Shown one piece after another: positions 41,348 to 64,000 of a DNA stretch of 64,000 bases. The DNA is from Candidatus Omnitrophota bacterium. Lineage in GTDB: Bacteria > Omnitrophota > Gorgyraeia > B26-G9. Positions within the stretch are counted from its first letter, which is position 1. Every line of letters starts with the position of its first letter. The DNA is taken from NCBI GenBank assembly GCA_043814605.1, contig JBDRJV010000037.1:163902-227901 (forward strand). Reading direction: 5' to 3'. A program made the translations under genes and the position numbers. The notes under the pieces are model-generated. The model was not told the origin of the DNA, searched no databases, and was given only the letters and a program-made list of their open reading frames with translations.

Positions 41348-41719
41348 ATGAAGAGTTATAAAGATTTGGAAATTTATAAATTATCCCATGATTTAGCAGT
41401 AAAGCTACATGAGATGACGCTGCAAAATTTACCTAAATTTGAGATATATGAACAAGGGAGTCAAATTAGAAAGTCATCTAAATCAATAGTTGCTACTATT
41501 GTTGAAGGTTTTGGGAGAAAATCATATCAACAGTAATTCATACGTTATTTGACCTATGCGTTAGCTTCCTGTGATGAAACAAAAGAGCATTTAGAATTAT
41601 TATTTGATACAAAATCTTTAAAAGATGAAATTAAATATAAAAATTGGATGCAGGAGTTGGAGAAGCTAGGCAGAAAACTATATAATTTTCGTAAAACAGT
41701 AGTTAAAGATCTAAAATAA
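41348..41719 (+). pseudogene. four-helix-bundle (IVS/Avd-like) gene, full length but interrupted by an in-frame TAA at 41534-41536
   Basis: The upstream part ...[16 protein letters not shown] and the same-frame downstream part FIRYLTYALASCDETKEHLELL... together reconstruct the whole family protein (about 123 codons). The downstream flank carries the cassette tail motif 'ggtaatttgtaactcgtaacttataact'. Confidence 0.6.
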
Positions 41720-41837
41720 TCTTGTATTCTGTAGCTTGCAGCTTGTAACTTGTAGCATTAGCAGTGTTTATCCAAAGATTTTTTTTGCTGCTAATTGGTA
41801 ATTTGTAACTCGTAACTTATAACTTTTTTGAGGAATT

Positions 41838-45715: not shown

Positions 45716-45721
45716 GATATT

Positions 45722-46753: not shown

Positions 46754-46760
46754 ATTAAAT

Positions 46761-47888
46761 TTGGTTAGTAAAATGCAAAATTATAAATTTAATAATAAGA
46801 AAATCGGGTTTTTAGGAGATACCCGGACAATCCAGTATGAGAGTTTTGTTCATTTGTGTAAAAATGCGCAAGTAGAGGTAATTCCTTTCCAGGAATCCTA
46901 TGCGAACAATCCGCAGCTTTTGCCCAGATCAAAAATTTTACGTTTAATTACTAGCATTAAGTGTCTAATAACAGGGATCACGGATAAAAAGTACAAAATG
47001 GCTTTACGAGACTATTTTAAAAAAAATGATATTAAATGTATTATTGCTTATTGGGGAACGGTTCCTTTTCGGGATATCATCAGTATTAAAAAAATTAACC
47101 CGGATGTAAAAATTATTTTACATGTTTTATGCCATCCTTTGGGGCTTACCCGGATGAAAGTTTTTTTGCAGAATTTATATTTTCGTTACGGAAGCAAATA
47201 TTTAGATGGAATCATCTATACCAGTAATATTATGAAAAATTATTTTCAAGATAAAGTTTTAAAAAAAAATATTCCAAGTATAATTTCATTTCCTTTATTG
47301 AGCAAGTACTTTTTACCGCAAAAAAGAAAAGATAAGGTTTTTGATCATACACCTAATCTGCTTTTTCTCGGAAGAATGGATTGGTGGGCTGGGCAACCGA
47401 CAGACAATGTACTTGAGCCTCTGGAAAATCTAATTAAGGCCGGCATTCATATTTATCATAGTGATAAAACCGGGGACCTGCCTGTTTCATCATTCCGGCA
47501 TGTTTTTAAGCCTATAATAAAGCTTAAAGAGGTAATAGAGTTTGCCACACAATTTGATGCATCACTAATTATCTATAATCTTAAAAAATGCAAGGTGCAG
47601 GATAGATTTAAACTCACTATCCCGGATCGCTTAATTACTGCGGTTACCGCCGGAATTCCAGTGGCAATTCCTCGGGATGGATATGATGCCTGTAAAGAAT
47701 TTTTAAAACCGTATCAGGCGGTAATTGAATTTACATCATTTACTGATTTAAAAGAAAAATTAGAGGCAAAAGAAAGTTTAACTATGTTGGCAAATCTGGC
47801 ACAAGAAAATAGTAGATTATTTACAGCTGAATCTCAGATTGATAATTTATTTGCTTTTATTTATCCCATTATTTACAAAGATGGATGA
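46761..47888 (+). CDS. hypothetical protein (possibly a divergent GT-B-fold enzyme)
   Basis: No clear motif. TTG start in the ORF track. Sits inside a run of glycosyltransferases. Confidence 0.3.
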   Translation: MVSKMQNYKFNNKKIGFLGDTRTIQYESFVHLCKNAQVEVIPFQESYANNPQLLPRSKILRLITSIKCLITGITDKKYKMALRDYFKKNDIKCIIAYWGTVPFRDIISIKKINPDVKIILHVLCHPLGLTRMKVFLQNLYFRYGSKYLDGIIYTSNIMKNYFQDKVLKKNIPSIISFPLLSKYFLPQKRKDKVFDHTPNLLFLGRMDWWAGQPTDNVLEPLENLIKAGIHIYHSDKTGDLPVSSFRHVFKPIIKLKEVIEFATQFDASLIIYNLKKCKVQDRFKLTIPDRLITAVTAGIPVAIPRDGYDACKEFLKPYQAVIEFTSFTDLKEKLEAKESLTMLANLAQENSRLFTAESQIDNLFAFIYPIIYKDG

Positions 47889-47940
47889 GTTAAAAATAGA
47901 AATAAATAGGCAAGATGAATCAGATAAAAGTTAAATTAGT

Positions 47941-49128
47941 GTGAGGCTGGAATTTAGGGCGGATTTTATGAGTTTAGTAAATTTAATATTTAATAAAATT
48001 AAATCTAAAATAAGCTTTTTCCCGGATAAAGGTTTAGCTTATTGGTTAATTCCTTATTTAAAAATTCAATTTAAAAAAACAATCCAGATTAAAAAGAGCT
48101 TAAGGCCGCAGCATATTATTTTAAGCATTGCGGATCATTATGAACCATTTCATGGCGCAGCTAATTTTAATTTGGCGCAGTCTCGGGTGCATAAATGGGT
48201 ACAAGAATATCCTAGATTTGCAGAAAAGCATAAAGATGCGAATGGGAAAAATCCCGCACATACCTGGTTTTATCCGCCGCATTTAGATCATTGTTTTTTA
48301 AAAGATTTAGTGGGTTTGTGTAAAACCGGATACGGAGAAATTGAAATGCATTTACACCATAATCACATGCGTCCCTTTCCGGATACTTCGCATACGTTAA
48401 AAGTAAAGATTTTAAAATGCATTGAAGATTATGCAAAATATGGGATTTTTTGTTTACCGGATGGAAGCAAAAGGTTTGGTTTTGTGCACGGAGACTGGTC
48501 TTTAGATAATTCACGCGGCAAGGAGATATGCGGGGTTAATGATGAGATTAAAATATTAAAAGAATGCGGTTGTTATGCTGATTTTACATTTCCTTCATTA
48601 GGCCCGGCACAACCAGCAATGATCAACAAAATTTATTATGTTGAAGATAATCCAAAGAAACCAAAATCTTATAACCAGGGTAAGGAATTAATTGCCGTGG
48701 GTAAGCCTTGGGGGGATTTATTAATGATTCCTGGAATTATCGGTTTACGCTGGGGTTCAAGAACGCATAAATTCAGACCTTCTGTAGAGAGTTCTGACTT
48801 AAGTAAATCAAATTATCCTTTTGAAAAAAGAATAGATTATTGGGTCCAAAACGCAATAACTATTCCTGGCAAGTCGGAGTGGAAATTTATAAAATTACAT
48901 ACACATGGAGCTATCGAAGATGCTTGGGATGTGCTTTTTGGTAAACAAGCAAATTTAATGTATGATTATTTAGAACAAAAATATAATGATAAAAAAAAGT
49001 ATATTTTGCATTATGTAACCGCGCGAGAAATGTACAATATTGTTAAGGCGGTTGAAGCAGGAGAAGGCGGTAATCCTAACTTGTACCGTGATTATGTTAT
49101 TCCCAGATATACTTATTTAAAGGTTTAA
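47941..49128 (+). CDS. hypothetical protein; His-rich motifs weakly reminiscent of NodB-type polysaccharide deacetylases
   Basis: LSIADHYEP and EIEMHLHHNH resemble the NodB TFDDG and HxxxH blocks only loosely. Confidence 0.25.
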   Translation: MRLEFRADFMSLVNLIFNKIKSKISFFPDKGLAYWLIPYLKIQFKKTIQIKKSLRPQHIILSIADHYEPFHGAANFNLAQSRVHKWVQEYPRFAEKHKDANGKNPAHTWFYPPHLDHCFLKDLVGLCKTGYGEIEMHLHHNHMRPFPDTSHTLKVKILKCIEDYAKYGIFCLPDGSKRFGFVHGDWSLDNSRGKEICGVNDEIKILKECGCYADFTFPSLGPAQPAMINKIYYVEDNPKKPKSYNQGKELIAVGKPWGDLLMIPGIIGLRWGSRTHKFRPSVESSDLSKSNYPFEKRIDYWVQNAITIPGKSEWKFIKLHTHGAIEDAWDVLFGKQANLMYDYLEQKYNDKKKYILHYVTAREMYNIVKAVEAGEGGNPNLYRDYVIPRYTYLKV

Positions 49129-49129
49129 A

Positions 49130-50299
49130 ATGAATATTCTACTTGTTAGTCATATGTTTCCCAATAATGTTAATCCTGGGTATGGAGTCTTTGTTAAAGA
49201 ACAGGCTAAATTTGTGGCAAAAAAAACTGATCTGCAAGTTATGGCGCCATTGCCTTTTTTTCCTTTGGCCGTGCTTTTTTCTAAATATAAAAGTTTTAAT
49301 AAAATTAGGAAAGCTGAAATAATTGATGGTCTAAAAGTAACCCATCCCCAATATTTTTTTATCCCTAAAGTGTTAAAATTTTTGGATGCTTGGTTTTACT
49401 CTTTATCATTAAATAGAAATTTAAGAAATTTAATCCGGAAAGAAAAAATTCAAATCTTGCATTTTCATTGGGGATATCCGGATGCAATAGCTTTGCTAAG
49501 GTTAGCGAAAAAAACAGGGTTAAAAACTGTATTAACAATACATGGTAATGAGAGTATTTGCTATTTTGAAAATTCTTTGCGCAAAAAAATCGTTCAGAAA
49601 TATCTTAAAAAATTTGATTATTTAATTGTTGTAAGTAATGATTTGAAAAATAAAATTATTCAGTATTATGATGTCCCGAAAACTAAAATAACCGTGATGC
49701 CTAACGGGATTAATACTGAAAATTTTTATTCAATAGATAAAAATGAAGCACGCCATATGTGTGGGATTGATCATAAAAAACAAATTATTCTTACTGTCTG
49801 CCGGCTAAGCCATGAAAAAGGGATTGAATATTTATTCCAGGCAATACAAAAGATTAAGGAGATAAATGTGGAATTATTGATTGCCGGGGATGGCCCGTTA
49901 AAGGAGAAATTACTTGTTTTAGCTAGGCAATTAAAAATATCTGATAAAATTAAATTTCTCGGGACAATTGTCCATGAAGAAATTTATAAATTTTATAATG
50001 CAGCCGATATATTTTGTTTGCCATCATTATGGGAAGGTTGTCCTTGTACAATAATTGAAGCCATGGCTTGCGGAACACCGGTAGTGGCTACCAAAGTTGG
50101 GGGCATTCCGGATATGATCAATAAAGAAACAGGTGTTTTGGTTGAGCCTAAAAATCCGGTGGCTCTAGCAGTGGCATTAACTGAAGCTTTAAATAAAAAA
50201 TGGAATCATGAACAAATATCAGCTATCGGTCAAAGTAATAGCTGGGATAATGTGGCGGATAAAGTTATTGAGGTTTATAAGAAAATTTTAGAAAAATAA
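49130..50299 (+). CDS. family 4 glycosyltransferase
   Basis: LWEGCPCTIIEAMACGTPVVATKVGGIPD. Confidence 0.75.
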   Translation: MNILLVSHMFPNNVNPGYGVFVKEQAKFVAKKTDLQVMAPLPFFPLAVLFSKYKSFNKIRKAEIIDGLKVTHPQYFFIPKVLKFLDAWFYSLSLNRNLRNLIRKEKIQILHFHWGYPDAIALLRLAKKTGLKTVLTIHGNESICYFENSLRKKIVQKYLKKFDYLIVVSNDLKNKIIQYYDVPKTKITVMPNGINTENFYSIDKNEARHMCGIDHKKQIILTVCRLSHEKGIEYLFQAIQKIKEINVELLIAGDGPLKEKLLVLARQLKISDKIKFLGTIVHEEIYKFYNAADIFCLPSLWEGCPCTIIEAMACGTPVVATKVGGIPDMINKETGVLVEPKNPVALAVALTEALNKKWNHEQISAIGQSNSWDNVADKVIEVYKKILEK

Positions 50300-50417
50300 T
50301 TATAAATTATGAATTACGAATTATGAATGAAAAAAATTAAAACTCAAAGAATGATGGTAAAATAATTTTAACTTGTAACTTTTAACTCATAACTAATAAC
50401 TTTACTGAAGGTAACAC
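50300..50417 (+). repeat. cargo-less cassette remnant: the leader-type and tail-type flank motifs of the four-helix-bundle cassette are fused without the gene
   Basis: 'ttatgaattacgaattatgaatgaaaaaaattaaaactcaaag' (leader-like) is followed by 'ttttaacttgtaacttttaactcataactaataact' (tail-like). Confidence 0.4.
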
Positions 50418-52289
50418 ATGTGCGGAATATTTGGTATTTATTACTCTGATAAATCAAAAAATATTGATCAAAACCTAGTAGTTGATGCGACAAATTTAAT
50501 GCATCACCGGGGGCCGGATGATTCTGGATTCTATGTAAAAAATAATATTGGCTTAGGACACAGGCGATTAAGTATTATTGATTTATCGCATGGGCATCAG
50601 CCGATGTTTAATGAAGACAACTCTATAACTGTAGTTTATAACGGAGAAATTTATAATCACGTTGAAATTAAAACCCAGTTGATTGCAAAAGGGCATGTGT
50701 TTAAAACCAAGTGCGATACAGAGGTTATCATTCATGCTTATGAAGAATGGGGATATGAAAGTGTTGAAAAATTTAACGGAATGTTTGCGTTTATCGTATG
50801 CGATTACAATAAAAAAATATTATGGATAGTAAGAGATAGATTAGGCATCAAGCCATTATATTATTTTTGGGATAAGCAAGTATTTATATGTGCTTCAGAA
50901 ATTAAAGCAATATTAAGCACAAAATTAATAAATGCCCAAATTAATGAACAGGTTTTAGATAGTTATTTTACGCTGGGCTATGTGCCGGGGCCGCAAACGA
51001 TGTTTAAAAATATTTATAAAGTTAACCCTGGTAATTTTTTAATTATCAAAGGCTGTGAATTAATTGAAGAGAAATATTGGGATTTTAATCAGGTTGAAAC
51101 AGGAAGTTTCAATTTAGAAAAAGCAAAGAGTTTAGTTGAAGAAGTGCTTCGGGACAGTATTGCTAAGCGATTAATGAGTGATGTTTCTTTAGGGGTGTTC
51201 TTGAGCGGGGGATTAGATTCTAGTGCGGTTGTGGCTTTAATGAGCGAGGTGGTTAATAATCCGATTAAAACTTTTACCGTTAGCTATGATAAGAAGTTTA
51301 ATGTAGGAGAGGATGAGTATGCTCAAGCTATTGCTAAAAAATTTAACACAGAGCATCATGTTTTTAATTTAGAGCCGGAAAATTTTTTGGCTTCCGTAAA
51401 TACTTTAGTTGATTTTAGCGAGGAGCCGATTGTTGAACCTGCGGCAATTGCTTTGTATCATATTTCTAAACTAGCGCGGGAAAATGCAATTGTGCTTTTA
51501 TCCGGTGAAGGCAGTGATGAAGTGTTTGCCGGGTATTTTCTTTATCAATTTATGAATAATATTAATAAGTTACATCAGGCTGTCCCGCCGTATATTTGGC
51601 GGTTATTTAAACCGACTATGCCGTTGATTAACAGTACAAAATATACTAAGTATTTTGATTGGTTGATGTTACCTGCTGAAAAAAGTTATCTCGGAACATC
51701 AAACTATTTAACGGATTCTTTAAGGCAAAAGTTTTATTCGCCTGATTTTTTACAAGTAAAAGGCAGCTATTTAAAAGAAACTTTTGATAATTATTTTGAG
51801 CGGGTAAAGCATAAAAAAAGTTTTATTAATAAAATGCTTTACGTGGACACAAAAACCTGGTTAGTGGATGACTTGCTGTTAAAAGCGGATAAAATGACTA
51901 TGGCTGCATCCATAGAATTGAGAGTGCCTTTTTTAGATTATCGTTTAGTAGAGCTGGCGGCTTCAATGCCGGATAACCTTAAAATTAATAAAAGTAACGG
52001 TAAATTTATTTTAAAATCAATAATGAAAAATAGATTACCGGATTATATTATAAATCGAAAAAAAATGGGATTTCCTGTACCAACTAAAAATTGGTTTTGC
52101 CAGGATATTTTTGAAAAAATTAAGGATATCTTAATTAGTAAAAGCCATGATTTGCCTTGGTGGAAGAAAGAAATGATTGAAAAGTTACTTAAGGAGCATA
52201 GTTCTAAACAAGAAGATCACAGCAAGCTGTTGATGATGCTGCTTGTGTTTATTAATTGGAAAGATAAATATATTGATGGAAATTACTAA
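50418..52289 (+). CDS. asnB: asparagine synthase (glutamine-hydrolysing)-type amidotransferase with intact Cys nucleophile
   Basis: N-terminal MCGIFGIYY. PP-loop VFLSGGLDSSAV. 623 aa. Confidence 0.75.
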   Translation: MCGIFGIYYSDKSKNIDQNLVVDATNLMHHRGPDDSGFYVKNNIGLGHRRLSIIDLSHGHQPMFNEDNSITVVYNGEIYNHVEIKTQLIAKGHVFKTKCDTEVIIHAYEEWGYESVEKFNGMFAFIVCDYNKKILWIVRDRLGIKPLYYFWDKQVFICASEIKAILSTKLINAQINEQVLDSYFTLGYVPGPQTMFKNIYKVNPGNFLIIKGCELIEEKYWDFNQVETGSFNLEKAKSLVEEVLRDSIAKRLMSDVSLGVFLSGGLDSSAVVALMSEVVNNPIKTFTVSYDKKFNVGEDEYAQAIAKKFNTEHHVFNLEPENFLASVNTLVDFSEEPIVEPAAIALYHISKLARENAIVLLSGEGSDEVFAGYFLYQFMNNINKLHQAVPPYIWRLFKPTMPLINSTKYTKYFDWLMLPAEKSYLGTSNYLTDSLRQKFYSPDFLQVKGSYLKETFDNYFERVKHKKSFINKMLYVDTKTWLVDDLLLKADKMTMAASIELRVPFLDYRLVELAASMPDNLKINKSNGKFILKSIMKNRLPDYIINRKKMGFPVPTKNWFCQDIFEKIKDILISKSHDLPWWKKEMIEKLLKEHSSKQEDHSKLLMMLLVFINWKDKYIDGNY

Positions 52290-52408
52290 TTACGAATTAT
52301 ACCCGCAGGGCACAGGTGAGTTACAAATTAAAAAATAGAATGCAGCAGGTCGCAGGAAAATAAAAAAAAGGTAAAGAAATCACTAATTAATGAATTGCGA
52401 GTTAAGGG

Positions 52409-53611
52409 TTGAAAATAATGAAGGATGAATTTAGAAAATTAAAAATTGTATATCATCACCGTACTCAAGGAAAGGGTGCAGAGGGAGTGCACATTCGAGA
52501 GATAATTAAAGCCTTGGAAGTTGAGGGCCACACAGTTTATGTAGTTAATCCTCCGGGGATTAATGTATTAATGGAACGTGATGAAGCGGATGTGTTTAAA
52601 AAATCATGGCTTGCAAAATTTTGGTCAATTTCAAGTAAGTATGCGCCACAGGTTTTATTTGAGATTTTAGAAGTTTGTTACAACTTTGTTGCTTTTTATG
52701 CAATAAAAAAAATTGTAGAAAAAGAAAACATTGATTTCATCTATGAAAGAAACGCTTTTTTTTGCTGGGCTGGGACAGCTGTTGCCCGGAAATTTAATAT
52801 TCCAATATTTATTGAGGTCAATGAAGTCAGCGGGATTGAACGCATCCGGGGCCAAGTTCTAACAAAGATTGCAAAAAAAATAGAACAATTTAATTTCCAT
52901 AATGCTTATGCCATTATTGTGGTCTCAGAATTTTTAAAAAAACATATTGCTAATATGGGGATAAATGAAGAAAAAATTCATGTTATGCCCAATGCTGTGG
53001 ATATTAAAAAATTTCAATCTAATGAAAATGAGATTAAAACTATTAAAGATAAATTTAAGTTAGGAGATAAAATTGTTTTAGGTTTTGTGGGAAGTTTTGT
53101 TAAATGGCATAATTTTGATTTGCTTTTTAATGTTTTAAAAGAAACATCAGTGCAGTTAAATAAAAATATTTGTTTATTAGTTGTAGGAGATGGCCCGTTA
53201 AGGGAAAGTTTAAAGCTAAAGGTGAAAGAATTAGGAATAGAGGGAAAAGTTATTTTTACGGGTAAAGTATTGCATGCTCAGGTGCCGCAATATATAAATA
53301 CAATGGATATTTGTATTATTCCGCACGCAAATGAGTACCGCTCTCCTATAAAATTATTTGAATATATGGCTATGGGTAAAACTGTTGTGGTTCCCAAAGT
53401 TGAACCGATTGAAAGTATAATTACGCATTCTGAAAACGGATGGATCTTTGAACTGGACAATAAAGATTCATTATTTAAATCTTTGAAATTTTTAATTGAA
53501 AATAAAAATATTCAGGAAGAAATTGGGAAAAATGCCAGAGATTTGGTATTCAATCAATATCTTTGGTCACATAATGCTCAAAGACTATTGTCTCTATATT
53601 ATAATTATTAA
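52409..53611 (+). CDS. family 4 glycosyltransferase
   Basis: ICIIPHANEYRSPIKLFEYMAMGKTVVVPK (E-x7-E-like). Confidence 0.7.
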   Translation: MKIMKDEFRKLKIVYHHRTQGKGAEGVHIREIIKALEVEGHTVYVVNPPGINVLMERDEADVFKKSWLAKFWSISSKYAPQVLFEILEVCYNFVAFYAIKKIVEKENIDFIYERNAFFCWAGTAVARKFNIPIFIEVNEVSGIERIRGQVLTKIAKKIEQFNFHNAYAIIVVSEFLKKHIANMGINEEKIHVMPNAVDIKKFQSNENEIKTIKDKFKLGDKIVLGFVGSFVKWHNFDLLFNVLKETSVQLNKNICLLVVGDGPLRESLKLKVKELGIEGKVIFTGKVLHAQVPQYINTMDICIIPHANEYRSPIKLFEYMAMGKTVVVPKVEPIESIITHSENGWIFELDNKDSLFKSLKFLIENKNIQEEIGKNARDLVFNQYLWSHNAQRLLSLYYNY

Positions 53612-53670
53612 GAAAGTGCTTGCTTCCTGGAAGAATTTATAGCATAATAATATCTGTATAGCTTACGGAT

Positions 53671-56600
53671 ATGAATCTATACAGAAAGGCCATGAAACAC
53701 ATAATTTTAAACTACGTATTAATTCCACTCTTAATAATCTTTAATTTACTTTTTGTCCAAATTGTTCAGGCGGCAACATATTATATGCCGGATAATTTTG
53801 CCAATTTACAAGCAGCATTCTCCGGCATGTCCGGCGGAGATACTTTAATTATCCGGAACGGGACTTATACCGGAGATGCGAACAGGATTACGACGAGTCA
53901 ACGCCCGCCTCAAGGCAATGCCGGAGCCTGGACAATAATTAAAGCGGAAAATGACGGCCAGGTTATTTTTGATGGGCAAAATGTCAGGAATATATTTGAC
54001 CATCAGCCTTCTTCAAGCAATAAGTATTGGCAGTTTGAAGGGCTGATCTGGTGCCGGACTCCGGATAGTAATGTTACTTTGACATATTCTCGTTATGTAA
54101 AATTTCTACGCTGCGGGGCTTTTGGCTGCGGTGCGGGAAACCGGATAAATTTCAATATCGGCCGGCAGAACGAGTATATTTTACTTGAGAACTGCTATGC
54201 CTGGGGCAGCGGCCGGTATAAGTTTTCCGCTTATCAAAGCCGGAGGATAGTTTTCCGGCAATGCGTGGGCCGCATGGATGATGTTAATGCTTTGGGTGAG
54301 CCGATCGCGATTTTTGCCATATATTCGGTGGATGATGTGGAGGTACAGAATTGTATTGCTATAGATTCTAATCAGACTTCGTCCTGGAGTAATGTCGGCC
54401 AATGCAGCGGATCTTTTTTTGTCCCTTCCACAGATATGGATGCTAACCGGGTAAATTTCACGCAATGCATTGCGTTAAACAATCAAATTGCCGGATTGTG
54501 TACGACAGGAAATAGTTCTTACGCGGCTAATGATGTGACGTTCCGGGATTGTGTAGTTTGGAATGTCGGATCATTTGATAACAACGCAATCAACTTATTA
54601 AGAGGTTATAATTCACAACTGCTCAATTGCACCTTTGGCCTGGCTAATGACCCGATAGATACGCATTATTCTTATGATGCTATTGATTTTGATAATAACG
54701 GTGTGTGTAAGAATTCCATAATTTATAATCACAGAGGCGCTGGGGTATTTAATGATTTTGAGATTGAAGATTACAATTGTTTATATGCTAACGACAACAA
54801 CAATAATTCCGGTTTGCATGATATAACTAATGTGAACCCAATTTATCATGCGTCAAATAATATTAGCGGAGCGTTGAGATACATTGTGCGGATTGAAAAT
54901 AATTCTAATTTGAGTACACGCGGCGAGAACAACGCAATTATTGGAGCGAATTGTTTAAAGACTATTGGCGCGCCAGGGTCGTTATGGGGCGAATATGGGT
55001 ATAATACCGTACAATCTACGAATTTATGGCCGTTTCCGTATGAGAGTGTAATTCGTACGGCAATGAGGGCATATAATTCCGGCGGGGTTAGCGGCAACCG
55101 GGGTTTTTGTGTAGATGGCCAGACACTAACCAAATATATTTGGGAATATTTAGGTAATCCGATGCCAACGGAACTTTATCAGGCAAGTCCGCTTACGATT
55201 AATACTACGGCTCTATCTGGTGGTGTAGTTAATACGAATTATCAGCAAACGCTTTCGGCTACCGGAGGAACTGCGCCGTATACATGGTCGATTGTTTCCG
55301 GCAGTATGCCTAATGGCTTAGTGTTGAATGCTTCAACCGGCCAGATCACCGGTATCCCGACACAGGAAAATACATTTAATTTTACGATCCAGGTGCGCGA
55401 TAGTGTAATGGCTACGGATACCCAAAGCCTTTCGATTGCAGTTATTCGGCAGGATACAACTGCTCCACTGATTTCCAGCGTAAATATTTCTAATATAACT
55501 CAATCATCGGCGATTATTTCCTGGGATACAGATGAGCCGGCAAACTCCCAGATACAGTACGGAGTAACTACATCCTATGGTTCTCAGACGGCACTGAATA
55601 CAAGCATGGTGACAGCGCATTCAGTATTAATCGCTAATCTTACTTCTAATACCGGGTATCATTTTAGGATTTTAAGCGCGGATAACTCGAATAATTTAAG
55701 GATTTCCGGGGATTATACTTTTACCACTAATTCAGTGGTTGTTACGGATAATGTTGCTCCACTGATTTCCAGCGTAAATATTTCTAATATAACTCAGTCA
55801 TCGGCGACTGTTTCCTGGAATACAGATGAGCCGGCAAACTCCCAGATACAGTACGGAGTAACTACATCCTATGGTTATCAGACGGCAATGAATACAAGCA
55901 TGGTTACTTCGCATTCTGTTTCGATTGCAAATCTTAATTCTGATACCGGATATCATTTTAGGATTTTAAGCGCGGATAACTCGAATAATTTAAGGATTTC
56001 CGGGGATTATACTTTTACCACTAATCAGGAAGTTATAAACGATAATATTGCTCCGGCAAATATTCAAGATTTAACAGTAGTTTTAACTACAAGTAATTCT
56101 GTAACACTTAGCTGGACTGCACCTGGTGATGATGCTAACAGCGGTACTGCGGCCAGTTATGATATCCGGTATTCAACGATTGGTAGTAGTTGGTATATCT
56201 GGTATTTTTCGTCTTTTGTAAACGGAGAACCCATACCGGCTGTTGCCGGAACAAGACAGACGATGACAATAGCCGGATTATCTTCGGGAAGGACATATTA
56301 TTTTGTGATGAAAACCCAGGATGAAGCGTCAAATGTCTCTGGGTATTCAAATGTTGTGAGCGGGCAAACGCAAAATATAAATGTTGCTGATTCTCAAGCT
56401 CCCTATGTTGAAGCTTGTTTGCCAATATTAAATGGTAGTAATATTCCGCGTGATACCAATATCCATTTTTGTATAAAAGATAATATTTCCGGAGTTGATC
56501 GAAGTACAATAGATTTATCTGTGCAGGGTATAGATATAATCACTAACGGAGGTATTCGCACATATATCGATGCTAATGGTCAGACTCAAGATTATAATGT

Positions 56601-58707
56601 GGAAATCTTCGAAAAAAATTCTCACGAATTTGTGATTACTTATGATCCGGCTGAATATTTCAATTACGAAGATACAATCAATGTTGTGGTTAATGCTAGC
56701 GATTTAAACCAGAATGAAATTGGCGGATACAGTTATTCTTTTAAAGTGCAGGGATTTGTTTACGGGGCATTTAATTCTTTTGGTGGTATGGCTCTGACCC
56801 AAACTCTGGACGATGAAGTTATTCCTGATTCTGTTATAAATCCAGCTCAAGATAATTCTTGCATTGTTGCCTCAACTAATGGAAAAAATGTTTATGTTGC
56901 TTGGGAACAAAGATCTAGTACGGGGGAGTGGAATATTTATTTGGCCTGGTCATTAAATTTTGGTGAAAATTTTACAGGATTAGTCCAGGTGAATCCGAGT
57001 ATATCCGGAATAGAATGCCGTTATCCGGCTTTGGATATTGACACAGCAGGAAATGTGTATGTAGTTTGGCAGCAACAGAGTGCAGGCGCAGGCTGGGATA
57101 TTTATATTGCCAAATTAGATAGCGGCCAAGCAAAGTTTAGTGAGAGTTATGTTATTTATAATGATATTGATGATACTAATCAGACAAAACCTTCAATTGC
57201 TGTGGGCTCTGCTTTAATTTCAGACGGAAATCCGAATACAGCAGAACCAGCGACAATATATGTCAGCTGGCTTGATGATCGTACATCAACAGCTCAAGTT
57301 TATTATACCCGAACAACTGCCGTATACAGTGATGCTTGGTATAGATTTGTGGCTGCGCCTATTCGTGTTGATGATGATCGCTGGCCGCAATATTGTGCAG
57401 ATGCAAATATTATAATTGATAATAACTCAAACATTTTTATCGCCTGGAGCGGAATCAATGATGATGGAAGTTGTAGTGTTTACTTTGACCGAGCGATTAG
57501 AACAATATATGACCGGGCAGAAAATTTTGGGACGGATGTAAGAGTGAATAGTTCTTCCAGCGGTAAGGCCCCATTATTAGCAGTTTCTAATGACGGGAGT
57601 AAAGTATATGTTCTTTGGAAAGAGTTATCTTTCGGGCAGGCAAAGCTACAATTTTCATATTACGGTTATAGCCAGTTACAGCGTAGATATTTACTGAATA
57701 TGTCAACACAAGTAAATACAAGTATACTCACTGAGAATGAACTAAATGAATATTCATTGAAGATAAATAGGGATGATGATGCTTTTGTAGTTTGGAGTGA
57801 ACAGCAGGGTGCTACAAGTATGATTAATATGGCCGGGGCTACATCCGGAAGTTATCAGTTCTTAAATTATGCTAATTTTACAACAGCAGGCAATCAAAAC
57901 AGGCCTTTTTTAGAAACAGATGTGGCAGGATATCATTTTTTTGTTAGCTGGACGGATAACACGAGTGGATTTGAATCAATAATGTTTTGCCGAAATACTT
58001 TTATTGTCACAGATCAGATCAAATCTCAAAAAATAGATAATGAGTTGGGCGGAATCGTGAGAGTTAGTGAGGGCAATATTACGGGTGCATCTGTAGCAAT
58101 AGAGGCAAACTCAATCGATGCTCCGGTTGAAATTACGCTTGCCGAAGTTATTGCATCACCGGCAAATAGTAGTAATATGCAAAAGATTGGCAACGGAGTT
58201 GACTTTGGACCCGGAGGAACAATTTTTAGTATTGATGCGAGAATTACTATTCCTTATACGGATGCGGCTTTATCTTTAGCCGGGATAGCAGATGAATCAG
58301 TATTAAAAGTATTTAATTATAATTTAGAAAAATCTGTATGGGAATTAGTGAATGGAGCAATCGTGAATACAGACGATAATACAGTTTCAGCAGGAATAAG
58401 TCATTTTTCAATTTATACAATAGGCAGGTCTACAGTAGTTGCTGATGCCGGTGGCGGCGGAGGCGGTGGTTTTTGCTTTATTGCCACAGCTGCTTTTAAT
58501 ACTCCGATGGCGAAAGAAGTATGTGTGCTTTGTCAATTTAGAGATAAATATTTACTGACAAACAATTGCGGTATTTGGTTTGTAAAATTTTATTACCATT
58601 ACAGCCCGCCCCTGGCTGACTTTATAAGGAATAAAGAAGGTTTAAAAAGTATAATTAGAGCTTGTTTGAAACCGTTGATAACCTTAAGTGAAATGATTTG
58701 TGAATAA
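53671..58707 (+). CDS. giant secreted surface protein (1678 aa): signal peptide, about 480-aa right-handed beta-helix-like domain, Ig-like/He_PIG-type segment, multiple Fn3-like repeats, large beta-rich region, Gly7 linker and conserved CFIATAAF C-terminal module
   Basis: Cleavable leader ending VQA|ATYYMP. Repetitive N/G/S/T-rich turns typical of parallel beta-helices. GGTAPYTWSIVSGSMPNGLVLNASTGQITG looks like a putative-Ig motif. Fn3-like units ...ISWDTDEPANSQIQYG...YHFRI. The C-terminus is GGGGGGGFCFIATAAFNTPMAKEV...FRDKYLLTN...FYYHYSPP. Confidence 0.7.
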   Translation: MNLYRKAMKHIILNYVLIPLLIIFNLLFVQIVQAATYYMPDNFANLQAAFSGMSGGDTLIIRNGTYTGDANRITTSQRPPQGNAGAWTIIKAENDGQVIFDGQNVRNIFDHQPSSSNKYWQFEGLIWCRTPDSNVTLTYSRYVKFLRCGAFGCGAGNRINFNIGRQNEYILLENCYAWGSGRYKFSAYQSRRIVFRQCVGRMDDVNALGEPIAIFAIYSVDDVEVQNCIAIDSNQTSSWSNVGQCSGSFFVPSTDMDANRVNFTQCIALNNQIAGLCTTGNSSYAANDVTFRDCVVWNVGSFDNNAINLLRGYNSQLLNCTFGLANDPIDTHYSYDAIDFDNNGVCKNSIIYNHRGAGVFNDFEIEDYNCLYANDNNNNSGLHDITNVNPIYHASNNISGALRYIVRIENNSNLSTRGENNAIIGANCLKTIGAPGSLWGEYGYNTVQSTNLWPFPYESVIRTAMRAYNSGGVSGNRGFCVDGQTLTKYIWEYLGNPMPTELYQASPLTINTTALSGGVVNTNYQQTLSATGGTAPYTWSIVSGSMPNGLVLNASTGQITGIPTQENTFNFTIQVRDSVMATDTQSLSIAVIRQDTTAPLISSVNISNITQSSAIISWDTDEPANSQIQYGVTTSYGSQTALNTSMVTAHSVLIANLTSNTGYHFRILSADNSNNLRISGDYTFTTNSVVVTDNVAPLISSVNISNITQSSATVSWNTDEPANSQIQYGVTTSYGYQTAMNTSMVTSHSVSIANLNSDTGYHFRILSADNSNNLRISGDYTFTTNQEVINDNIAPANIQDLTVVLTTSNSVTLSWTAPGDDANSGTAASYDIRYSTIGSSWYIWYFSSFVNGEPIPAVAGTRQTMTIAGLSSGRTYYFVMKTQDEASNVSGYSNVVSGQTQNINVADSQAPYVEACLPILNGSNIPRDTNIHFCIKDNISGVDRSTIDLSVQGIDIITNGGIRTYIDANGQTQDYNVEIFEKNSHEFVITYDPAEYFNYEDTINVVVNASDLNQNEIGGYSYSFKVQGFVYGAFNSFGGMALTQTLDDEVIPDSVINPAQDNSCIVASTNGKNVYVAWEQRSSTGEWNIYLAWSLNFGENFTGLVQVNPSISGIECRYPALDIDTAGNVYVVWQQQSAGAGWDIYIAKLDSGQAKFSESYVIYNDIDDTNQTKPSIAVGSALISDGNPNTAEPATIYVSWLDDRTSTAQVYYTRTTAVYSDAWYRFVAAPIRVDDDRWPQYCADANIIIDNNSNIFIAWSGINDDGSCSVYFDRAIRTIYDRAENFGTDVRVNSSSSGKAPLLAVSNDGSKVYVLWKELSFGQAKLQFSYYGYSQLQRRYLLNMSTQVNTSILTENELNEYSLKINRDDDAFVVWSEQQGATSMINMAGATSGSYQFLNYANFTTAGNQNRPFLETDVAGYHFFVSWTDNTSGFESIMFCRNTFIVTDQIKSQKIDNELGGIVRVSEGNITGASVAIEANSIDAPVEITLAEVIASPANSSNMQKIGNGVDFGPGGTIFSIDARITIPYTDAALSLAGIADESVLKVFNYNLEKSVWELVNGAIVNTDDNTVSAGISHFSIYTIGRSTVVADAGGGGGGGFCFIATAAFNTPMAKEVCVLCQFRDKYLLTNNCGIWFVKFYYHYSPPLADFIRNKEGLKSIIRACLKPLITLSEMICE
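55462..56049 (+). repeat. two tandem 294-bp (98-aa) near-identical Fn3-like coding repeats inside the giant gene
   Basis: Units starting at 55462 and 55756 are about 93-95% identical at the nucleotide level. Confidence 0.8.
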
Positions 58708-58895
58708 TGAGTTTTGCAGGCTGACTTGCAGCTTTTAACTTGAAACCTGAAGCAGTTGAATTATCAGTGTTCACATTAGTTATTACCCCTTTTAAAATCC
58801 AAAAAATAAAAATAATAAAAAGGCTTGATTCTATTTTTGAATCGTAGTATAAGTATACCGGTATAATTTTTAATAATTATTAATTCAAAGATAAA

Positions 58896-60956
58896 ATGAA
58901 ACAATCAAAATTTACTTATATATTATTTTCTATATTCATAATCCTAATAGTACTTTGTGTCCAAATTGCTCAGGCCGCAACATATTACATGCCGGATAAT
59001 TTTGCGAATTTACAGCAGGCATTTTCCGGGATGTCCAGCGGAGATATTTTAATTATTCGAAACGGGACATATACGGGTAATGAAAACAGGATTACGACAA
59101 GTCAATGCCCGCCCGCGGGTAATGCCGGAGTCTGGACAATAATCAAAGCGGAAAATGACGGCCAGGTAATTTTTGACGGCCAGGATACGCGCAATATGTT
59201 TGATCATCAGCCCTTATCCAGTAATAAATATTGGCAATTTGAGGGGTTAATTTGGTGTCGTTCTGTAGATAGTACGGTTACGATAACTTATTCTCGCTAT
59301 GTAAAATTTCTACGCTGCGGGGCATTTGGCTGCGGTGCGGGAAACCGGATAAATTTCAATATCGGTCGGGAAAATTCATATATTCTTTTGGAAAACTGCT
59401 ATGCCTGGGGTAGCGGACGCTATAAGTTTGCTGCTTATCGGAACGAACGGATAATTTTCCGGCAATGCGTGGGCCGCATGGATGATGTTAATGCTTTGGG
59501 TGAGCCGATTGCGATTTTTGCGATGTATTCGGTGGATGATGTGGAAGTACAGAATTGTATTGCCATTGATTCCAATCAGACCTCTGCCTGGACTAATATC
59601 GGCCAGTGCGGCGGGTCTTTTTTTGTTCCGTCTACAGAGATGAATACTAACCGGGTAAATTTCACGCAATGCATTGCTTTAAACAATCAAATTGCCGGAT
59701 TATGCACAACCGGTAATACTTCTTACGCGGCTAATGATGTGACTTTCAGGGATTGTGTAGTTTGGAATGTCGGCTCGTTTGATAACAACGCGATCAACTT
59801 ATTAAGAGGCTATAATTCACAACTGCTCAATTGTACCTTTGGCCTGGCTAATGACCCGGTAGATACGCATTATTCTTATGATGCGATTGGGTATAATAAC
59901 ATTAGTTCGTGTAAAAATTCAATAATCTATAATCACAGAGGTGCTGCTGTATTTAATGATTTTGAGATTGAGGATTATAATTGTTTGTACGCGAATGATG
60001 ATAATAATAATATTGGATTACATGATTTAACGAATGTAAATCCGATTTACAATGCTGCTAATAATGCTAATGGTGCTTTAAAATATATTATCCGCATTGA
60101 AGATAATTCTAATCTGAGTACGCGAGGTGAGAATAATACAGTTATTGGGGCAAATTGTTTAAAGACTATCGGCGCGCCAGGGTCGTTATGGGGCGAATAC
60201 GGGTATAATACTGTACAATCTACGAATTTATGGCCGTTTCCGTATGAGAGTGTAATTCGTATGGCAATGAGGGCATATAATTCCGGCGGGGTTAGCGGCA
60301 ACCGGGGTTTTTGTGTAGATGGCCAGACACTAACCAAATATATCTGGGAATATTTAGGCAATGCGATTCCTCCGGAAATTTATGGCTCAGCTGACTTGCG
60401 TCCTCCTTCAAATCTTGTCGCAACAATAAAAAATTTTTTATTATCTGCACAAGTTGTTTTAACCTGGGTTGATGATTCGCAATCTGAAGATGGGTTTAAA
60501 ATTGAAAGAAAAGAAGGTGAATTTGGCCTTTGGATAGACTTAATCGAAGTCGGGGCTAATGTTACCACATATACTGATGATCAAGTGTTAGAAGGAAGTA
60601 TTTATTATTATCGAGTCAAGGCTTTTAATAATGTTTTTGATACAGCTTATTCTAATGAAGCTTTAGCGGATTTGATAAATAATACAACAAGCAGTAGTGG
60701 CGGCGGAGAAGGAGGGCCTTGTTTTATTGTCACAGCTGCTTTTAATACACCTATGGCACAAGAAGTGCGTACTCTTTGTCGTTTCAGAGATAAATATTTA
60801 CTGACAAACAATTACGGTATTTGGTTTATAAAATTTTATTACTATTACAGCCCGCCAATTGCCGATTATATAAGGAATAAAGAACTAATAAAGAAGGTTA
60901 TTAGAACGGCTCTTCATCCTTTAATAATGATTAGCCACTATTTAGTTAATAAGTAG
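58896..60956 (+). CDS. paralog 2 of the secreted beta-helix protein (686 aa): same leader and beta-helix domain, one Fn3-like unit, Gly/Ser linker and CFIVTAAF C-terminal module
   Basis: The first about 1.48 kb is about 85-90% identical to 53671-55150 and includes a near-identical stretch (60170-60365 versus 54950-55150). The C-terminal module matches that of the giant protein. Confidence 0.7.
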   Translation: MKQSKFTYILFSIFIILIVLCVQIAQAATYYMPDNFANLQQAFSGMSSGDILIIRNGTYTGNENRITTSQCPPAGNAGVWTIIKAENDGQVIFDGQDTRNMFDHQPLSSNKYWQFEGLIWCRSVDSTVTITYSRYVKFLRCGAFGCGAGNRINFNIGRENSYILLENCYAWGSGRYKFAAYRNERIIFRQCVGRMDDVNALGEPIAIFAMYSVDDVEVQNCIAIDSNQTSAWTNIGQCGGSFFVPSTEMNTNRVNFTQCIALNNQIAGLCTTGNTSYAANDVTFRDCVVWNVGSFDNNAINLLRGYNSQLLNCTFGLANDPVDTHYSYDAIGYNNISSCKNSIIYNHRGAAVFNDFEIEDYNCLYANDDNNNIGLHDLTNVNPIYNAANNANGALKYIIRIEDNSNLSTRGENNTVIGANCLKTIGAPGSLWGEYGYNTVQSTNLWPFPYESVIRMAMRAYNSGGVSGNRGFCVDGQTLTKYIWEYLGNAIPPEIYGSADLRPPSNLVATIKNFLLSAQVVLTWVDDSQSEDGFKIERKEGEFGLWIDLIEVGANVTTYTDDQVLEGSIYYYRVKAFNNVFDTAYSNEALADLINNTTSSSGGGEGGPCFIVTAAFNTPMAQEVRTLCRFRDKYLLTNNYGIWFIKFYYYYSPPIADYIRNKELIKKVIRTALHPLIMISHYLVNK

Positions 60957-61353
60957 AATATAAATTGCTACAGGCTGCAAGCTACAGGACGCAGGAAAAA
61001 CAAAAGTTAACCTTTAACTTATAAGCACTCAATTCTAAATTCTAACAGTTTATGCCTATAATGTATAATTTACATTATTAAAAATAAAGTTGGAGTTCTT
61101 TCCTAATCGCTGTTTTCTAAACGCTAATCGCTGTCCGCTAAACCCTGCTTTTTACGAAATAAATTTCACGAATAGAAAAATCTTTCTTTTTTTTGAATAT
61201 TTACTTAAAAGAAAAAATAAAATTTATTGGCTTAACTTTTCTAACATGCTAAAATAAAATGTATTAGCGTATTTAATTATTTGTTTTTTACAATTAGTTC
61301 TTGGCATAAAAATTGCTTTGTAATAAAGGAATATGTATTTGGGGAAAGAGGCT

Positions 61354-64000
61354 ATGAAAAGAAAAAATCTAATTATTATATCCTTAGCAGTTGCCTTATT
61401 TTTCTGCAAAATTGCTCAGGCAGCAACTTATTACATGCCGGATAATTTTGCCAATTTACAAGCAGCTTTTAGCGGCATGTCCTCAGGGGATACATTAATT
61501 ATCCGGGACGGAACTTATACTGGCAGTACTAATGCCATTACAACCAGTGTTTATCCGCCAGTGGGCAGTGCGGGTAATTATACGAAAATCAAAGCCGAAC
61601 ATGATGGCCAGGTAATTTTTGACGGACAAAATACCCGCAATATGTTTGACCACCAACCTTCCTTAAGTAATAAATATTGGCAGTTTGAAGGAATAATCTG
61701 GTGCAGGGCTGTAGACAGTACGATAATTCTAATCAGATCACGTTATGTGAAATTTTTACGTTGCGGCGCGTATGATACTGGTGCGGGAAACAGGTTAAAT
61801 TTTAATATTGGCCGGGAATGTGATTATATATTATTAGAAAATTGTTATGCCTGGGGCAGTGGCCGTTATAAATTTGCTTCTTATGAAGCGGATCATATAA
61901 TTTTCCGGCAATGCGTAGGGAGGTTGGACCGAGTGGATTCCAGCGGTGAACCGATTGCGATATATTCAATTTATGCTTCCAGCGATGTAGAAGTACAAAA
62001 CTGTATTGCCATTGATTCAGATCAGACAGCGTATTGGGCAAATGTGGGCCAGTATGCCGGCAGTTTTTTTGTGCCGTGTACCTCAGGTATTTCAGAGAGG
62101 GTAAATTTTAAACAATGTTTATCGGTAAATGTTTTATTGGGTGGATGCAGTTCTGCTTCTAATACTGATTCTACAGATGTGCTTTGGGAGAATTGTTTGG
62201 TCTGGGATTGTGAAGCTAATAATGGCATAGTTAATATGATTCGCGGGTCTGATAACATTGTAAGAAACTGTACTTTTGGGATTACAGACAGCTCCAGTGT
62301 TTATATGTATGCTGACGGAGCGAATACAACTGTTAGCAACAGTATTTTTTATGATATAACTTCTTCTTCTCATCTATTGCAATATGCGGACATTCAGGAT
62401 TATAACTGTTTTTATGGTAATAGCAGCTCTAATATCATCAGCGGTACGCATAATGTTAATACTAATCCTTTAACTAATTCTTTACGTTATCTGCCGCGAA
62501 TTGAAAGCGGCTCGACTTTAGACGGTGCCGGGGTTAGCGGTGCGGATATCGGAGCAAATTGTTTAAAAATGATTGGAGTTCCGGGTACATTATGGGGCGA
62601 AACCGGTTATAATGTAGAACAGGTTACGAATATGTGGCCTTTTCCGAATGAAGATGTCATCCGTACTAAAATGAAAGCTTATGATAGCGGCGGGGTAAGC
62701 GGTAATCGTGGTTTTTGCGCGGATAGTACAACTTTAACCAAATATATTTGGGAATATTTAGGTAATACAATACCAGCAGAAATTTATGGGGCTTCAATTT
62801 TAAATATCACTACTTCTTCCTTAGCAGATGGAGTTATAAATACTTCATATAGCCAAACGCTTAGTGTTTCCGGAGGTACAATGCCTTATGTCTGGAGTTT
62901 GAGTTCCGGGACATTACCAGCAGGATTGTCTTTAAACTCAGCAACCGGCGCAATCACCGGAACACCCTCAAGTGCCGGCACGGTAAATTTTACAGTGCAA
63001 GTTACAGATAATAATTCTAATACAGATACCCAAAATTTAAGTATAATTGTTATTGCTCCGGATACAACAGCTCCGGTTATTTCCAGTGTTATGAGTTCCG
63101 GTACTACTGCTAGCGGAACAACAATCAGCTGGAACACAAATGAATCCGCAACTTCGCAGGTAGAATACGGCACAAGTATTAGTTATGGATCCGTGACAGT
63201 GCTTGATACAAATTTAGTAACTGCACATTCTGTATCTATTTCCGGATTAAATAGCGAGACTACGTATCATTTTAGAGTTAAAAGTAAGGATGCGGCTAAT
63301 AATGAAGCGGTTTCCAGTGACAATTCTCTTACTACATCGGCAGCACCAGTAATCAATAATATGTTGCAGGATTTTGAAGATAATGTGTTATGGGTACCTA
63401 ACGGAGCCCAGGATCCTGAGGGATACGGACGCGGCTGGGCATTTACCACTCAAGGCGTTGGTGATTCCATTACGATTGATAGTATCGGTGCTAACGGTAC
63501 AAACCGTTCTTTAAAAGTTACTTTTACCAGCACTAATGATTGCCAAATTTATTTTAGGTCAGACGATAAAACCACAGATCATATGCCAGAAGCTCAAGGA
63601 GCTAACCGAATCGGTTTTTATGTGAGATTTCCTGCAGATTATCCGATACAGCCATTACCATTTAGATATAATAGCTGGCAATTTGGTACATATATCCATG
63701 ATCCGGATAACTGGTCAGATACCAATGCAGCTACATATGAAGAAGGCCCGGGAATCCATCATTATTATCACAGAGTAACCATGGAACAAGTAGGCAATGG
63801 CTGGGTAAAATATATTTTTGATACGCATCCGGACCAGGCTAATTATAGCGGCACTACAGTGCCACCGGATAGAGGTTCTGAATATTATGATAATTATGGC
63901 AGATTCTATTTTCATTTTGGCGGAGAATCCGGAGGCCCGGAACCAGCTCGGCCAGTTACAATATGGATTGATGAAATTAAATTTTATTATGATGACGGCT
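61354..64000 (+). CDS. paralog 3 of the secreted beta-helix protein (more divergent); 3' end lies beyond the window
   Basis: Not in the ORF track because no stop falls inside the window. Manual translation gives MKRKNLIIISLAVALFFCKIAQAATYYMPDNFANLQAAFSGMSSGDTLIIRDGTYTG..., co-linear with paralogs 1 and 2. It continues through an Ig-like segment, an Fn3-like unit and a further beta-rich domain to base 64000. Confidence 0.65.
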   Translation, partial: MKRKNLIIISLAVALFFCKIAQAATYYMPDNFANLQAAFSGMSSGDTLIIRDGTYTGSTNAITTSVYPPVGSAGNYTKIKAEHDGQVIFDGQNTRNMFDHQPSLSNKYWQFEGIIWCRAVDSTIILIRSRYVKFLRCGAYDTGAGNRLNFNIGRECDYILLENCYAWGSGRYKFASYEADHIIFRQCVGRLDRVDSSGEPIAIYSIYASSDVEVQNCIAIDSDQTAYWANVGQYAGSFFVPCTSGISERVNFKQCLSVNVLLGGCSSASNTDSTDVLWENCLVWDCEANNGIVNMIRGSDNIVRNCTFGITDSSSVYMYADGANTTVSNSIFYDITSSSHLLQYADIQDYNCFYGNSSSNIISGTHNVNTNPLTNSLRYLPRIESGSTLDGAGVSGADIGANCLKMIGVPGTLWGETGYNVEQVTNMWPFPNEDVIRTKMKAYDSGGVSGNRGFCADSTTLTKYIWEYLGNTIPAEIYGASILNITTSSLADGVINTSYSQTLSVSGGTMPYVWSLSSGTLPAGLSLNSATGAITGTPSSAGTVNFTVQVTDNNSNTDTQNLSIIVIAPDTTAPVISSVMSSGTTASGTTISWNTNESATSQVEYGTSISYGSVTVLDTNLVTAHSVSISGLNSETTYHFRVKSKDAANNEAVSSDNSLTTSAAPVINNMLQDFEDNVLWVPNGAQDPEGYGRGWAFTTQGVGDSITIDSIGANGTNRSLKVTFTSTNDCQIYFRSDDKTTDHMPEAQGANRIGFYVRFPADYPIQPLPFRYNSWQFGTYIHDPDNWSDTNAATYEEGPGIHHYYHRVTMEQVGNGWVKYIFDTHPDQANYSGTTVPPDRGSEYYDNYGRFYFHFGGESGGPEPARPVTIWIDEIKFYYDDG

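Follow-up and report, generated by a model that had tools for sequence, protein, structure and literature searches.

Tandem beta-helix proteins in an exopolysaccharide cassette of an Omnitrophota bacterium and the CFI-box module carried by two of them

Several exopolysaccharides (EPS) are processed by enzymes of their own, namely AlgL, AlgG and AlgE for alginate, RbmB for Vibrio polysaccharide, and ExoK and ExsH for succinoglycan. Here, three tandem genes, called A, B and C, are described from a 64,000-nt stretch of Candidatus Omnitrophota bacterium DNA (GenBank assembly GCA_043814605.1, contig JBDRJV010000037.1, positions 163,902 to 227,901 of the forward strand). This whole stretch is called the window, and all coordinates are positions in it. 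The three genes are on the + strand, behind GT4, AsnB and GT4 genes of a Wzx/Wzy-type EPS locus. Their products start with a predicted export leader and a beta-helix domain, and A and B end in a C-terminal module known as the CFI-box. On balance, we favor the account that these are exported EPS-processing enzymes that end the Wzx/Wzy cassette and that two of them are tethered by the CFI-box. We are more confident that a glycan-acting protein is functionally tied to the EPS cassette, and less confident of the specific chemistry and of the role of the CFI-box.

Beta-helix paralogs in an exopolysaccharide cassette

A preliminary description of this DNA had called A, B and C tandem paralogs. The three open reading frames (ORFs) are indeed present (Table 1), and their products share 57 to 82.6% identity: between A and B it is 82.6% over 523 aa, and between either of them and C it is 57-59% over ~490-680 aa. 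Families of DNA repeats also run across the paralog copies at 68-93% identity. As judged from these alignments, the paralogy is far beyond chance. The part of C inside the window is identical to residues 1-882 of P0003, a 1112-aa protein encoded on a 229,859-bp contig of an NCBI Candidatus Omnitrophota bacterium metagenome-assembled genome (MAG). This full-length form of C ends ...INVTIDAEDLAN and has no CFI-box. The leaders end ...IVQA before ATYYMPDNFANLQAAFSGMS in A, ...IAQA before ATYYMPDNFANLQQAFSGMS in B and ...IAQA before ATYYMPDNFANLQAAFSGMS in C, and all three fit the pattern (V/A)QA-ATYYMPDNFANLQ(A/Q)AFSGMS, where the hyphen marks the predicted cleavage site. An AQA ending had been reported for all of them; this holds for B and C, and the VQA of A is a trivial difference. 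Each leader has a basic n-region, a hydrophobic core and an AXA-type site and, when read by eye, looks Sec-type.

The N-terminal domain was modeled with AlphaFold from an alignment of 67 sequences. The AF2 model of the B domain (pLDDT 94.8, pTM 0.93) is an all-beta solenoid in which many short strands form a long stack, with a small alpha/beta cap after it, and its top Foldseek matches are Pel9A and PL6. The model thus agrees with the right-handed parallel beta-helix that had been proposed earlier. It places the domain in the pectin-lyase-like superfamily, where it falls in no characterized family. Compared with sequences, the family profile matches a PL6 lyase in its N-terminal cap alone (E 8.6e-5), and some homologs carry precomputed Pfam matches to PF22842 (Pel9A-like_beta_helix), PF13229 and PF14592. 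The Pfam gathering score was not reached on the N-domain of A, B or C. A and B have no match to PF22842, PF14592 (Chondroitinase_B) or PF13229 (Beta_helix) even at E ≤ 10, and the sole such match is that of C to Chondroitinas_B (14.1 bits, cutoff 24, residues 9-71). The conserved blocks of the domain are RCGA, CYAWGxGRYKF, FRQCVGRxD, QNCIAIDS, NRGFC and YIWEYLGN, and many polar residues (R, D, Q, E and K) are invariant or nearly so across the 67 sequences. In B, the invariant ones include R189, D196, Q219, D225 and E402.

Members of the beta-helix family were found in Omnitrophota, the Candidate Phyla Radiation (CPR), Elusimicrobia, Desulfobacterota, Myxococcota, Acidobacteriota, DPANN, Altiarchaeota and Methanosarcinales. 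Most are from uncultured organisms, and the cultured gammaproteobacteria Teredinibacter and Motiliproteus have members as well. Synteny was examined in 78 genome loci, 38 of which are at least 15 kb long. GT4a, AsnB and GT4b lie directly upstream of the homolog, on the same strand and in the same order, in at least eight other lineages (L004, L005, L006, L011, L013, L018, L053 and L079). The lineages with this cassette are Clostridia, Syntrophaceae, Endomicrobiales, Desulfuromonadales, Desulfatiglandales, Elusimicrobia and Omnitrophota MAGs, to which L079 is added. Among the 38 longer loci, an adjacent GT4 was seen in 14, AsnB in 9, and a relative of the 395-aa protein encoded ahead of GT4a in 8. 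Relatives of this 395-aa protein are 40-64% identical to it and stand beside the GT4-AsnB-GT4-beta-helix cassette in several phyla. It has no match in Pfam, NCBIfam or PDB and, from its neighborhoods, appears to be a conserved member of the EPS pathway.

The closest full-length homolog of B, P0001, is 49% identical and has a CFI-box at its end too. Upstream of it are genes for GT2, GT1, Wzy_C, GT4, GT4, an unknown protein, a deacetylase, an epimerase and GT1, and downstream is a 2887-aa paralog with a Pel9A-like beta-helix. Two Omnitrophota loci (L027 and L028) have a 670-686-aa CFI-box protein followed by a ~1150-aa paralog that ends ...VNASDLAP and has no CFI-box. Since both of these loci repeat the B-then-C arrangement, the B and C subtypes and their order are conserved and not accidental. 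Because the GT4-AsnB-GT4-beta-helix order recurs across lineages, the beta-helix proteins would be integral to the Wzx/Wzy EPS cassette, and the synteny presents the family as its conserved fourth gene. The preliminary description had suggested a glycan-acting role linked to the locus, and the synteny across phyla strongly backs this.

The genes upstream of A had been taken for a polysaccharide (capsule) locus, and this identification stands. Polysacc_synt (Wzx), Wzy_C, Poly_export with SLBB (Wza), GNVR (GNVR/Wzz) and AAA_31 (a BY-kinase-type ATPase) were found above Pfam cutoffs in the window, and GT4s and AsnB were matched as well. With all defining components present, the domain content classes it as a Wzx/Wzy-dependent polysaccharide locus. 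Its sugar genes include GlmS, a TviB-like dehydrogenase, a second NDP-sugar (UDP-Glc) dehydrogenase, epimerases/dehydratases, a TviC-like gene, RmlB and WbuX. It also encodes several GT4/GT2 transferases, and three AsnB-type amidotransferases in addition to the WbuX amidotransferase. The TviB-like UDP-GlcNAc 6-dehydrogenase scored 538.8 bits, and the second dehydrogenase is above its cutoff. Because the locus has these dehydrogenases, a TviC-like epimerase and AsnB/WbuX amidotransferases, its polymer probably contains uronic acids, which are possibly amidated. Uronate polymers are the substrate class of the best structural matches of the N-domain. Families associated with XrtA/PEP-CTERM systems were best matches in the locus, all below cutoff: TIGR03108 (577.8 bits, cutoff 816.9), TIGR03097 (69.8, cutoff 188.1), TIGR03088 (241.9, cutoff 409) and TIGR03098 (396.2, cutoff 592). 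No exosortase or CPBP-type protease was seen among the searched ORFs of the window.

The CFI-box module

The preliminary description had found no named signal for the C-terminal module and, in its title, had given the module to all three proteins. Both points need correction. A hidden Markov model (HMM) search matched A (91.7 bits) and B (87.5 bits) to NCBIfam NF041770, CFI-box-CTERM, over profile positions 1-69 of 69, with a cutoff of 40. There is no NF041770 match in the window part of C and no CFI motif in P0003. The Gly linker and CFI motif at the ends of A and B are exactly as described: the six-frame translation contains CFI[AV]TAAFNTPMA... two times and no more, at 58474 (CFIATAAF, in A) and 60720 (CFIVTAAF, in B), with a Gly run before each. 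The module stops 8-9 residues short of the stop codon. NF041770 is a catalogued family whose name carries no demonstrated function. Literature searches on CFI-box-CTERM, CFI-box and CFIATAA found zero relevant papers, and the preprint by Haft on Cys-containing sorting signals (10.1101/2023.06.07.544157) does not mention the CFI-box. The module was modeled as a short helix and a compact three-helix bundle with amphipathic helices, with a moderate pLDDT of 73.6 for the monomer. Comparing the CFI profile with PDB sequences gave nothing meaningful and no relative of solved structure.

A homolog search with the 94-aa C-terminus gave 2 matches only, and a 44-sequence profile gave short fragments only. 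A profile of seven modules, run at E ≤ 1e-3 against 1.84 billion cluster representatives (50% identity), matched 26,873 proteins, almost always at the C-terminus and behind a Gly/Ser-rich linker. The passengers include S8 subtilases, C25 and M6 peptidases, PKD, SBBP, PQQ propellers, GDSL lipases and DUF1565 beta-helices. The first Cys never varies across 350 distinct modules, and no other Cys is conserved; these modules were chosen with the CFIATA pattern or for their top scores, which means that part of the Cys invariance is built in. Conserved in at least 97% of them are F, I, A, T, A, G, an FRD triplet, YY, SP and a late R...L.P.

In a metagenome sample of 80 loci (L081-L160) with 94 CFI genes, two architectural classes were seen. 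Class I, to which A and B belong, ends 0-21 residues after the module (47/94). The genes of class II (also 47/94) extend for at least 24 residues, and 44 of these 47 have a transmembrane (TM)-like stretch and then an Arg cluster. The class II tail has ~36 extra residues, with the TM and Arg features ~75 residues past the Cys, and the class is absent from the window. Fourteen of the 80 loci have two CFI genes, and in six of these the pair is one of each class, adjacent. An N-terminal hydrophobic, signal-like segment is present in 59 of the 65 complete metagenomic CFI genes. Some beta-helix homologs carry other domains at the position of the CFI-box: MYXO-CTERM (22.2 bits, cutoff 20) and T9SS type A sorting domains (25.6 and 38.8 bits, cutoff 23). 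Dockerin-like tails were seen there in archaeal homologs by eye only and were not confirmed by NCBIfam.

Proposed mechanism and its alternatives

We infer that A, B and C are Sec-exported, multi-domain proteins of the pectin-lyase fold that act on carbohydrate polymers, and that they most likely cleave or modify a uronic-acid polymer. After export, the groove of the beta-helix would bind the cell's own polymer. The enzyme would then cleave or modify this polymer as a lyase, glycanase or C5-epimerase and would so govern the length of the chains, their release or their structure. Ig and Fn3 modules would serve as spacers. In A and B, retention at the envelope would fall to the CFI-box, which could self-associate or dock, possibly onto CFI-box proteins with a TM anchor of their own. 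A role of the CFI-box in envelope retention is what its C-terminal position, the secreted passengers, the signal segments, the class with TM and Arg, and the interchange with MYXO-CTERM and T9SS domains point to.

Several observations weigh against this account. No catalytic residues could be assigned in the N-domain. Those of the related enzymes are, besides a Ca2+ site, Lys/Arg in PL6, Lys and four Asp in PL9 and DPHD in AlgE/AlgG, and no DPHD-like motif is among the conserved blocks. Paralog C and many members of the beta-helix family carry no anchor, and A and B end in an amphipathic helix, with no TM helix or Arg cluster past the CFI-box. Around the 94 CFI genes, no recurrent neighbor or processing enzyme was found, and the top neighbor family occurs at 6 of the 80 loci. 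Plasmids of cultured organisms also encode three CFI-box proteins that have no signal peptide. The one on a Burkholderia cenocepacia plasmid (L183:3653-4234) joins a cold-shock domain and a zinc ribbon to the CFI-box and is next to a Lar anti-restriction gene. The one on 5.2-kb plasmids of Acinetobacter lwoffii (L184:1333-2184) has 283 aa, and the one on PL47 of Haloquadratum walsbyi (L185:3218-4252) has an Mrr-like N-terminus and is next to a restriction endonuclease. The anchoring or sorting role suggested by the preliminary description is therefore plausible, given the swap with MYXO-CTERM and T9SS domains and the half of the genes with TM and Arg, and it is complicated by these signal-less members.

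Another possible explanation is that the CFI-box is a true C-terminal sorting signal like PEP-CTERM, MYXO-CTERM and Synerg-CTERM. The Cys would then be modified (for example, lipidated), a dedicated enzyme would process the domain, and the passenger would be attached covalently to the envelope. The lone invariant Cys fits this. So does the Gly-rich run ending in it, which is reminiscent of the Cys-containing signals in the preprint by Haft (10.1101/2023.06.07.544157), and so do the TM helix and Arg cluster behind half of the sampled modules and the interchange with MYXO-CTERM and T9SS domains. The same is true of the best matches of the EPS locus, which are XrtA/PEP-CTERM-associated families, and of the "-CTERM" name given by NCBI. 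However, the CFI-box is a conserved 69-aa helical domain and not a short motif directly before TM and Arg, the invariance of its Cys partly reflects how the modules were sampled, and the neighborhoods hold no cognate enzyme, with neither exosortase nor CPBP-type protease seen in the window. Since the TM helix and Arg cluster are missing from A and B, no enzyme recurs and the plasmid members have no signal peptide, the CFI-box does not look like a strict sorting signal, and we consider this explanation unlikely.

The CFI-box could also be a general oligomerization or docking bundle of helices that has no localization role, works in the cytoplasm or outside, and multimerizes the domains before it. 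Beta-helix enzymes are often trimeric, and the predicted compact bundle with its amphipathic helices, the occurrence on exported and signal-less proteins alike, the flexible Gly linker to unrelated passenger domains and the tandem CFI genes in 14/80 loci would all suit such a function. Even so, about 90% of the complete environmental members look exported and half are TM-anchored, which is a strong bias for a neutral tag. The invariant lone Cys would also be left unexplained, and the monomer model is of moderate confidence only. For these reasons, we doubt that the CFI-box is a bundle of this general kind.

A docking or oligomerization bundle that is TM-anchored in class II might reconcile the facts about the CFI-box. 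A broader proposal is that bacteria and archaea have a very widespread, as yet undescribed system for tethering proteins to the envelope, in which the CFI-box would serve for both recognition and attachment. Covalent modification or linkage would take place at the invariant Cys at the end of the Gly-rich linker, and class I proteins, A and B among them, would be kept in place by docking on TM-anchored class II proteins or by the same chemistry. Taken jointly, these three points are speculative and rather improbable. If true, the tethering system would couple polymer-processing enzymes to the EPS pathway and would be an analogue of PEP-CTERM/exosortase built from different parts.

The account of own-EPS processing also has to be weighed against the possibility that A, B and C have no catalytic function and serve as surface adhesins or matrix scaffolds, or that they are depolymerases directed at the glycans of other cells in predation or nutrition. 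A family member 39.7% identical was found downstream of tail genes in one archaeal Caudoviricetes genome, and other members are in 21 IMG/VR contigs; these viral members are consistent with an ability of the fold family to degrade glycans. Large extensions with Ig, Fn3 and propeller-like parts would also suit adhesion. Yet the tight same-strand, same-order synteny behind GT4-AsnB-GT4 in many phyla argues for a role in that pathway, and the many invariant polar residues in the 67 sequences are more active-site-like than scaffold-like. Also, A, B and C had no match in PHROGs, the A-B region had no megablast match to phages, and no phage genes are nearby in the window. Thus, we think that an adhesin, a scaffold or a depolymerase against foreign glycans is quite unlikely. 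A prophage tailspike remnant (no phage context), an S-layer protein, which the preliminary description had offered (no SLH or S-layer family match in Pfam or NCBIfam), and a lipobox or Hint-type "G-CF" autoprocessing (the module is helical and only 69 aa, unlike a Hint fold) were rejected.

Other features of the window and relation to known systems

The Ig-like and Fn3 insertions of the preliminary description are real by Pfam in A and C (Table 1). The Fn3-like module of B was assigned through homology to P0001, whose own Pfam fn3 match is weak. A 294-nt tandem duplication at 55452-56039 (family D4), perfectly in register and 90% identical, covers two adjacent Fn3 modules of A and indicates, at the level of DNA, a recent internal module duplication. 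The large beta-rich region reported for A is present and comprises ~690 aa, not ~800 aa. Within it, seven [VIF][YF]xxW repeats at residues 1074-1423, ~55 residues apart in the stretch 56890-57990 (residues ~1074-1440), probably form a seven-bladed beta-propeller. The domain just before the Gly linker of A ends SHFSIYTIG (residues ~1575-1590; 58390-58440), whose HFS may resemble the autoproteolytic site of ZU5/Nup98-type domains. The end domain of C within the window (63331-64000; ...PVTIWIDEIKFYYDDGSVGG...) is also terminal in the Desulfuromonadales homolog L011 (...FTIWIDEIRFYHDDGSVGG...). This sharing suggests a conserved accessory module, which possibly binds carbohydrate.

The G+C content is 0.36-0.42 across the three paralogs (54001-64000) and 0.30-0.34 in the preceding EPS genes (36001-54000). 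This rise may be due to a Gly/Ser/Thr-rich composition or to a different origin. A promoter and terminator scan found no excess over shuffled controls. Inside the EPS locus, two overlapping ORFs of 213 and 267 aa (28079-29520) have no NCBIfam match and, by eye, are like an AbiEi/AbiEii-type antitoxin and nucleotidyltransferase toxin. Upstream of the locus, a gene set at 582-14181 has the look of an isoprenoid/glycolipid set. It includes DXS (816.8 bits), IPP isomerase, an MGT-type glycosyltransferase, a B12-binding radical SAM protein, flippase-like, AsnB-like and PEP-synthase/PigC-like genes, a geranylgeranyl-reductase-family gene (92 bits, under cutoff) and a multi-TM ORF that is UbiA-like by eye only.

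Table 1. Positions of the paralogs, their parts and the upstream EPS genes in the window
Feature	Position	Strand	Residues	Part order or basis
Paralog A	53671-58707	+	1678 aa	ORF; signal peptide, beta-helix, He_PIG, 3x Fn3, Ig-like region, seven-repeat propeller-like region, beta domain, Gly linker, CFI-box
A predicted signal peptide	53671-53772	+	1-34	Ends ...IVQA before A; read from sequence
A beta-helix domain	53773-55185	+	about 35-505	
A He_PIG and three Fn3/Pur_ac_phosph_N units	55189-56361	+	507-591 and 604-897	Pfam
A beta-rich region	56362-58440	+	898-1590	No match in Pfam, NCBIfam or PDB
A CFI-box-CTERM	58474-58680	+	1602-1670	NF041770; class I
Paralog B	58896-60956	+	686 aa	ORF; signal peptide (1-27), beta-helix (28-~500), Fn3-like (~505-598), Gly linker, CFI-box
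B CFI-box-CTERM	60720-60926	+	609-677	NF041770; class I
Paralog C	61354-64000	+	882 codons without stop	ATG at 61354, open at window end; signal peptide (1-23), beta-helix (24-~485), He_PIG (487-566, Pfam), Fn3 (582-659, Pfam), then a domain without family
Rest of Wzx/Wzy-type EPS locus	14871-49128	+		Pfam/NCBIfam matches
Conserved 395-aa protein	47941-49128	+	395 aa	Recurs near beta-helix homologs
GT4a	49130-50299	+		Pfam, NCBIfam
AsnB-type amidotransferase	50418-52289	+		Pfam, NCBIfam
GT4b	52409-53611	+		Pfam, NCBIfam

As members of two existing families, A, B and C are ordinary, and their interest lies in what these families may do. The beta-helix family is a candidate polymer-processing enzyme for the poorly understood XrtA-like EPS loci of uncultured bacteria, in lineages that include Omnitrophota, Elusimicrobia, Desulfobacterota and Clostridia. 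Few C-terminal modules on exported proteins are as abundant as the CFI-box, but no function, structure or partner has been published for it. Handles on it are the two architectural classes, the interchange with MYXO-CTERM and T9SS domains, the invariant lone Cys, and the signal-less minority on plasmids of cultivable Acinetobacter, Burkholderia and Haloquadratum.

Compared with the XrtA/PEP-CTERM-associated EPS locus (Haft 2006), the window locus falls outside, with the member families below cutoff and exosortase not found. Phage tailspikes and capsule depolymerases differ from A, B and C, which have predicted Sec signal peptides instead of an N-terminal virion-attachment domain and show neither phage context nor a PHROG match. 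The CFI-box shares with the tripartite and Cys-containing sorting signals a C-terminal site on diverse secreted proteins, an invariant Cys after a low-complexity linker and a link to an EPS locus that scores best against XrtA-system families; one of these signals, MYXO-CTERM, is carried by beta-helix homologs themselves. In contrast to PEP-CTERM and MYXO-CTERM, the CFI-box of A and B is predicted to be a 69-aa folded helical domain and lacks the two defining elements of those signals, a TM segment and an Arg cluster. For the CFI-box, no enzyme of the sortase kind was found, and some CFI-box members are not exported. Within NF041770, A and B are like other members in matching the whole 69-position model at the C-terminus with a Gly-rich linker ahead, and they are of the class I type, in which no TM helix and Arg cluster trail the module. 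The EPS-operon enzymes of the pectin-lyase fold, AlgE4/AlgG, PL6, Pel9A (PL9) and Vibrio RbmB, are 9-18% identical to the A/B/C domain. Their catalytic motifs were not recognized in A, B and C, and the A/B/C family has an extra conserved C-terminal alpha/beta cap (NRGFC...YIWEYLGN) that sets it apart from them.

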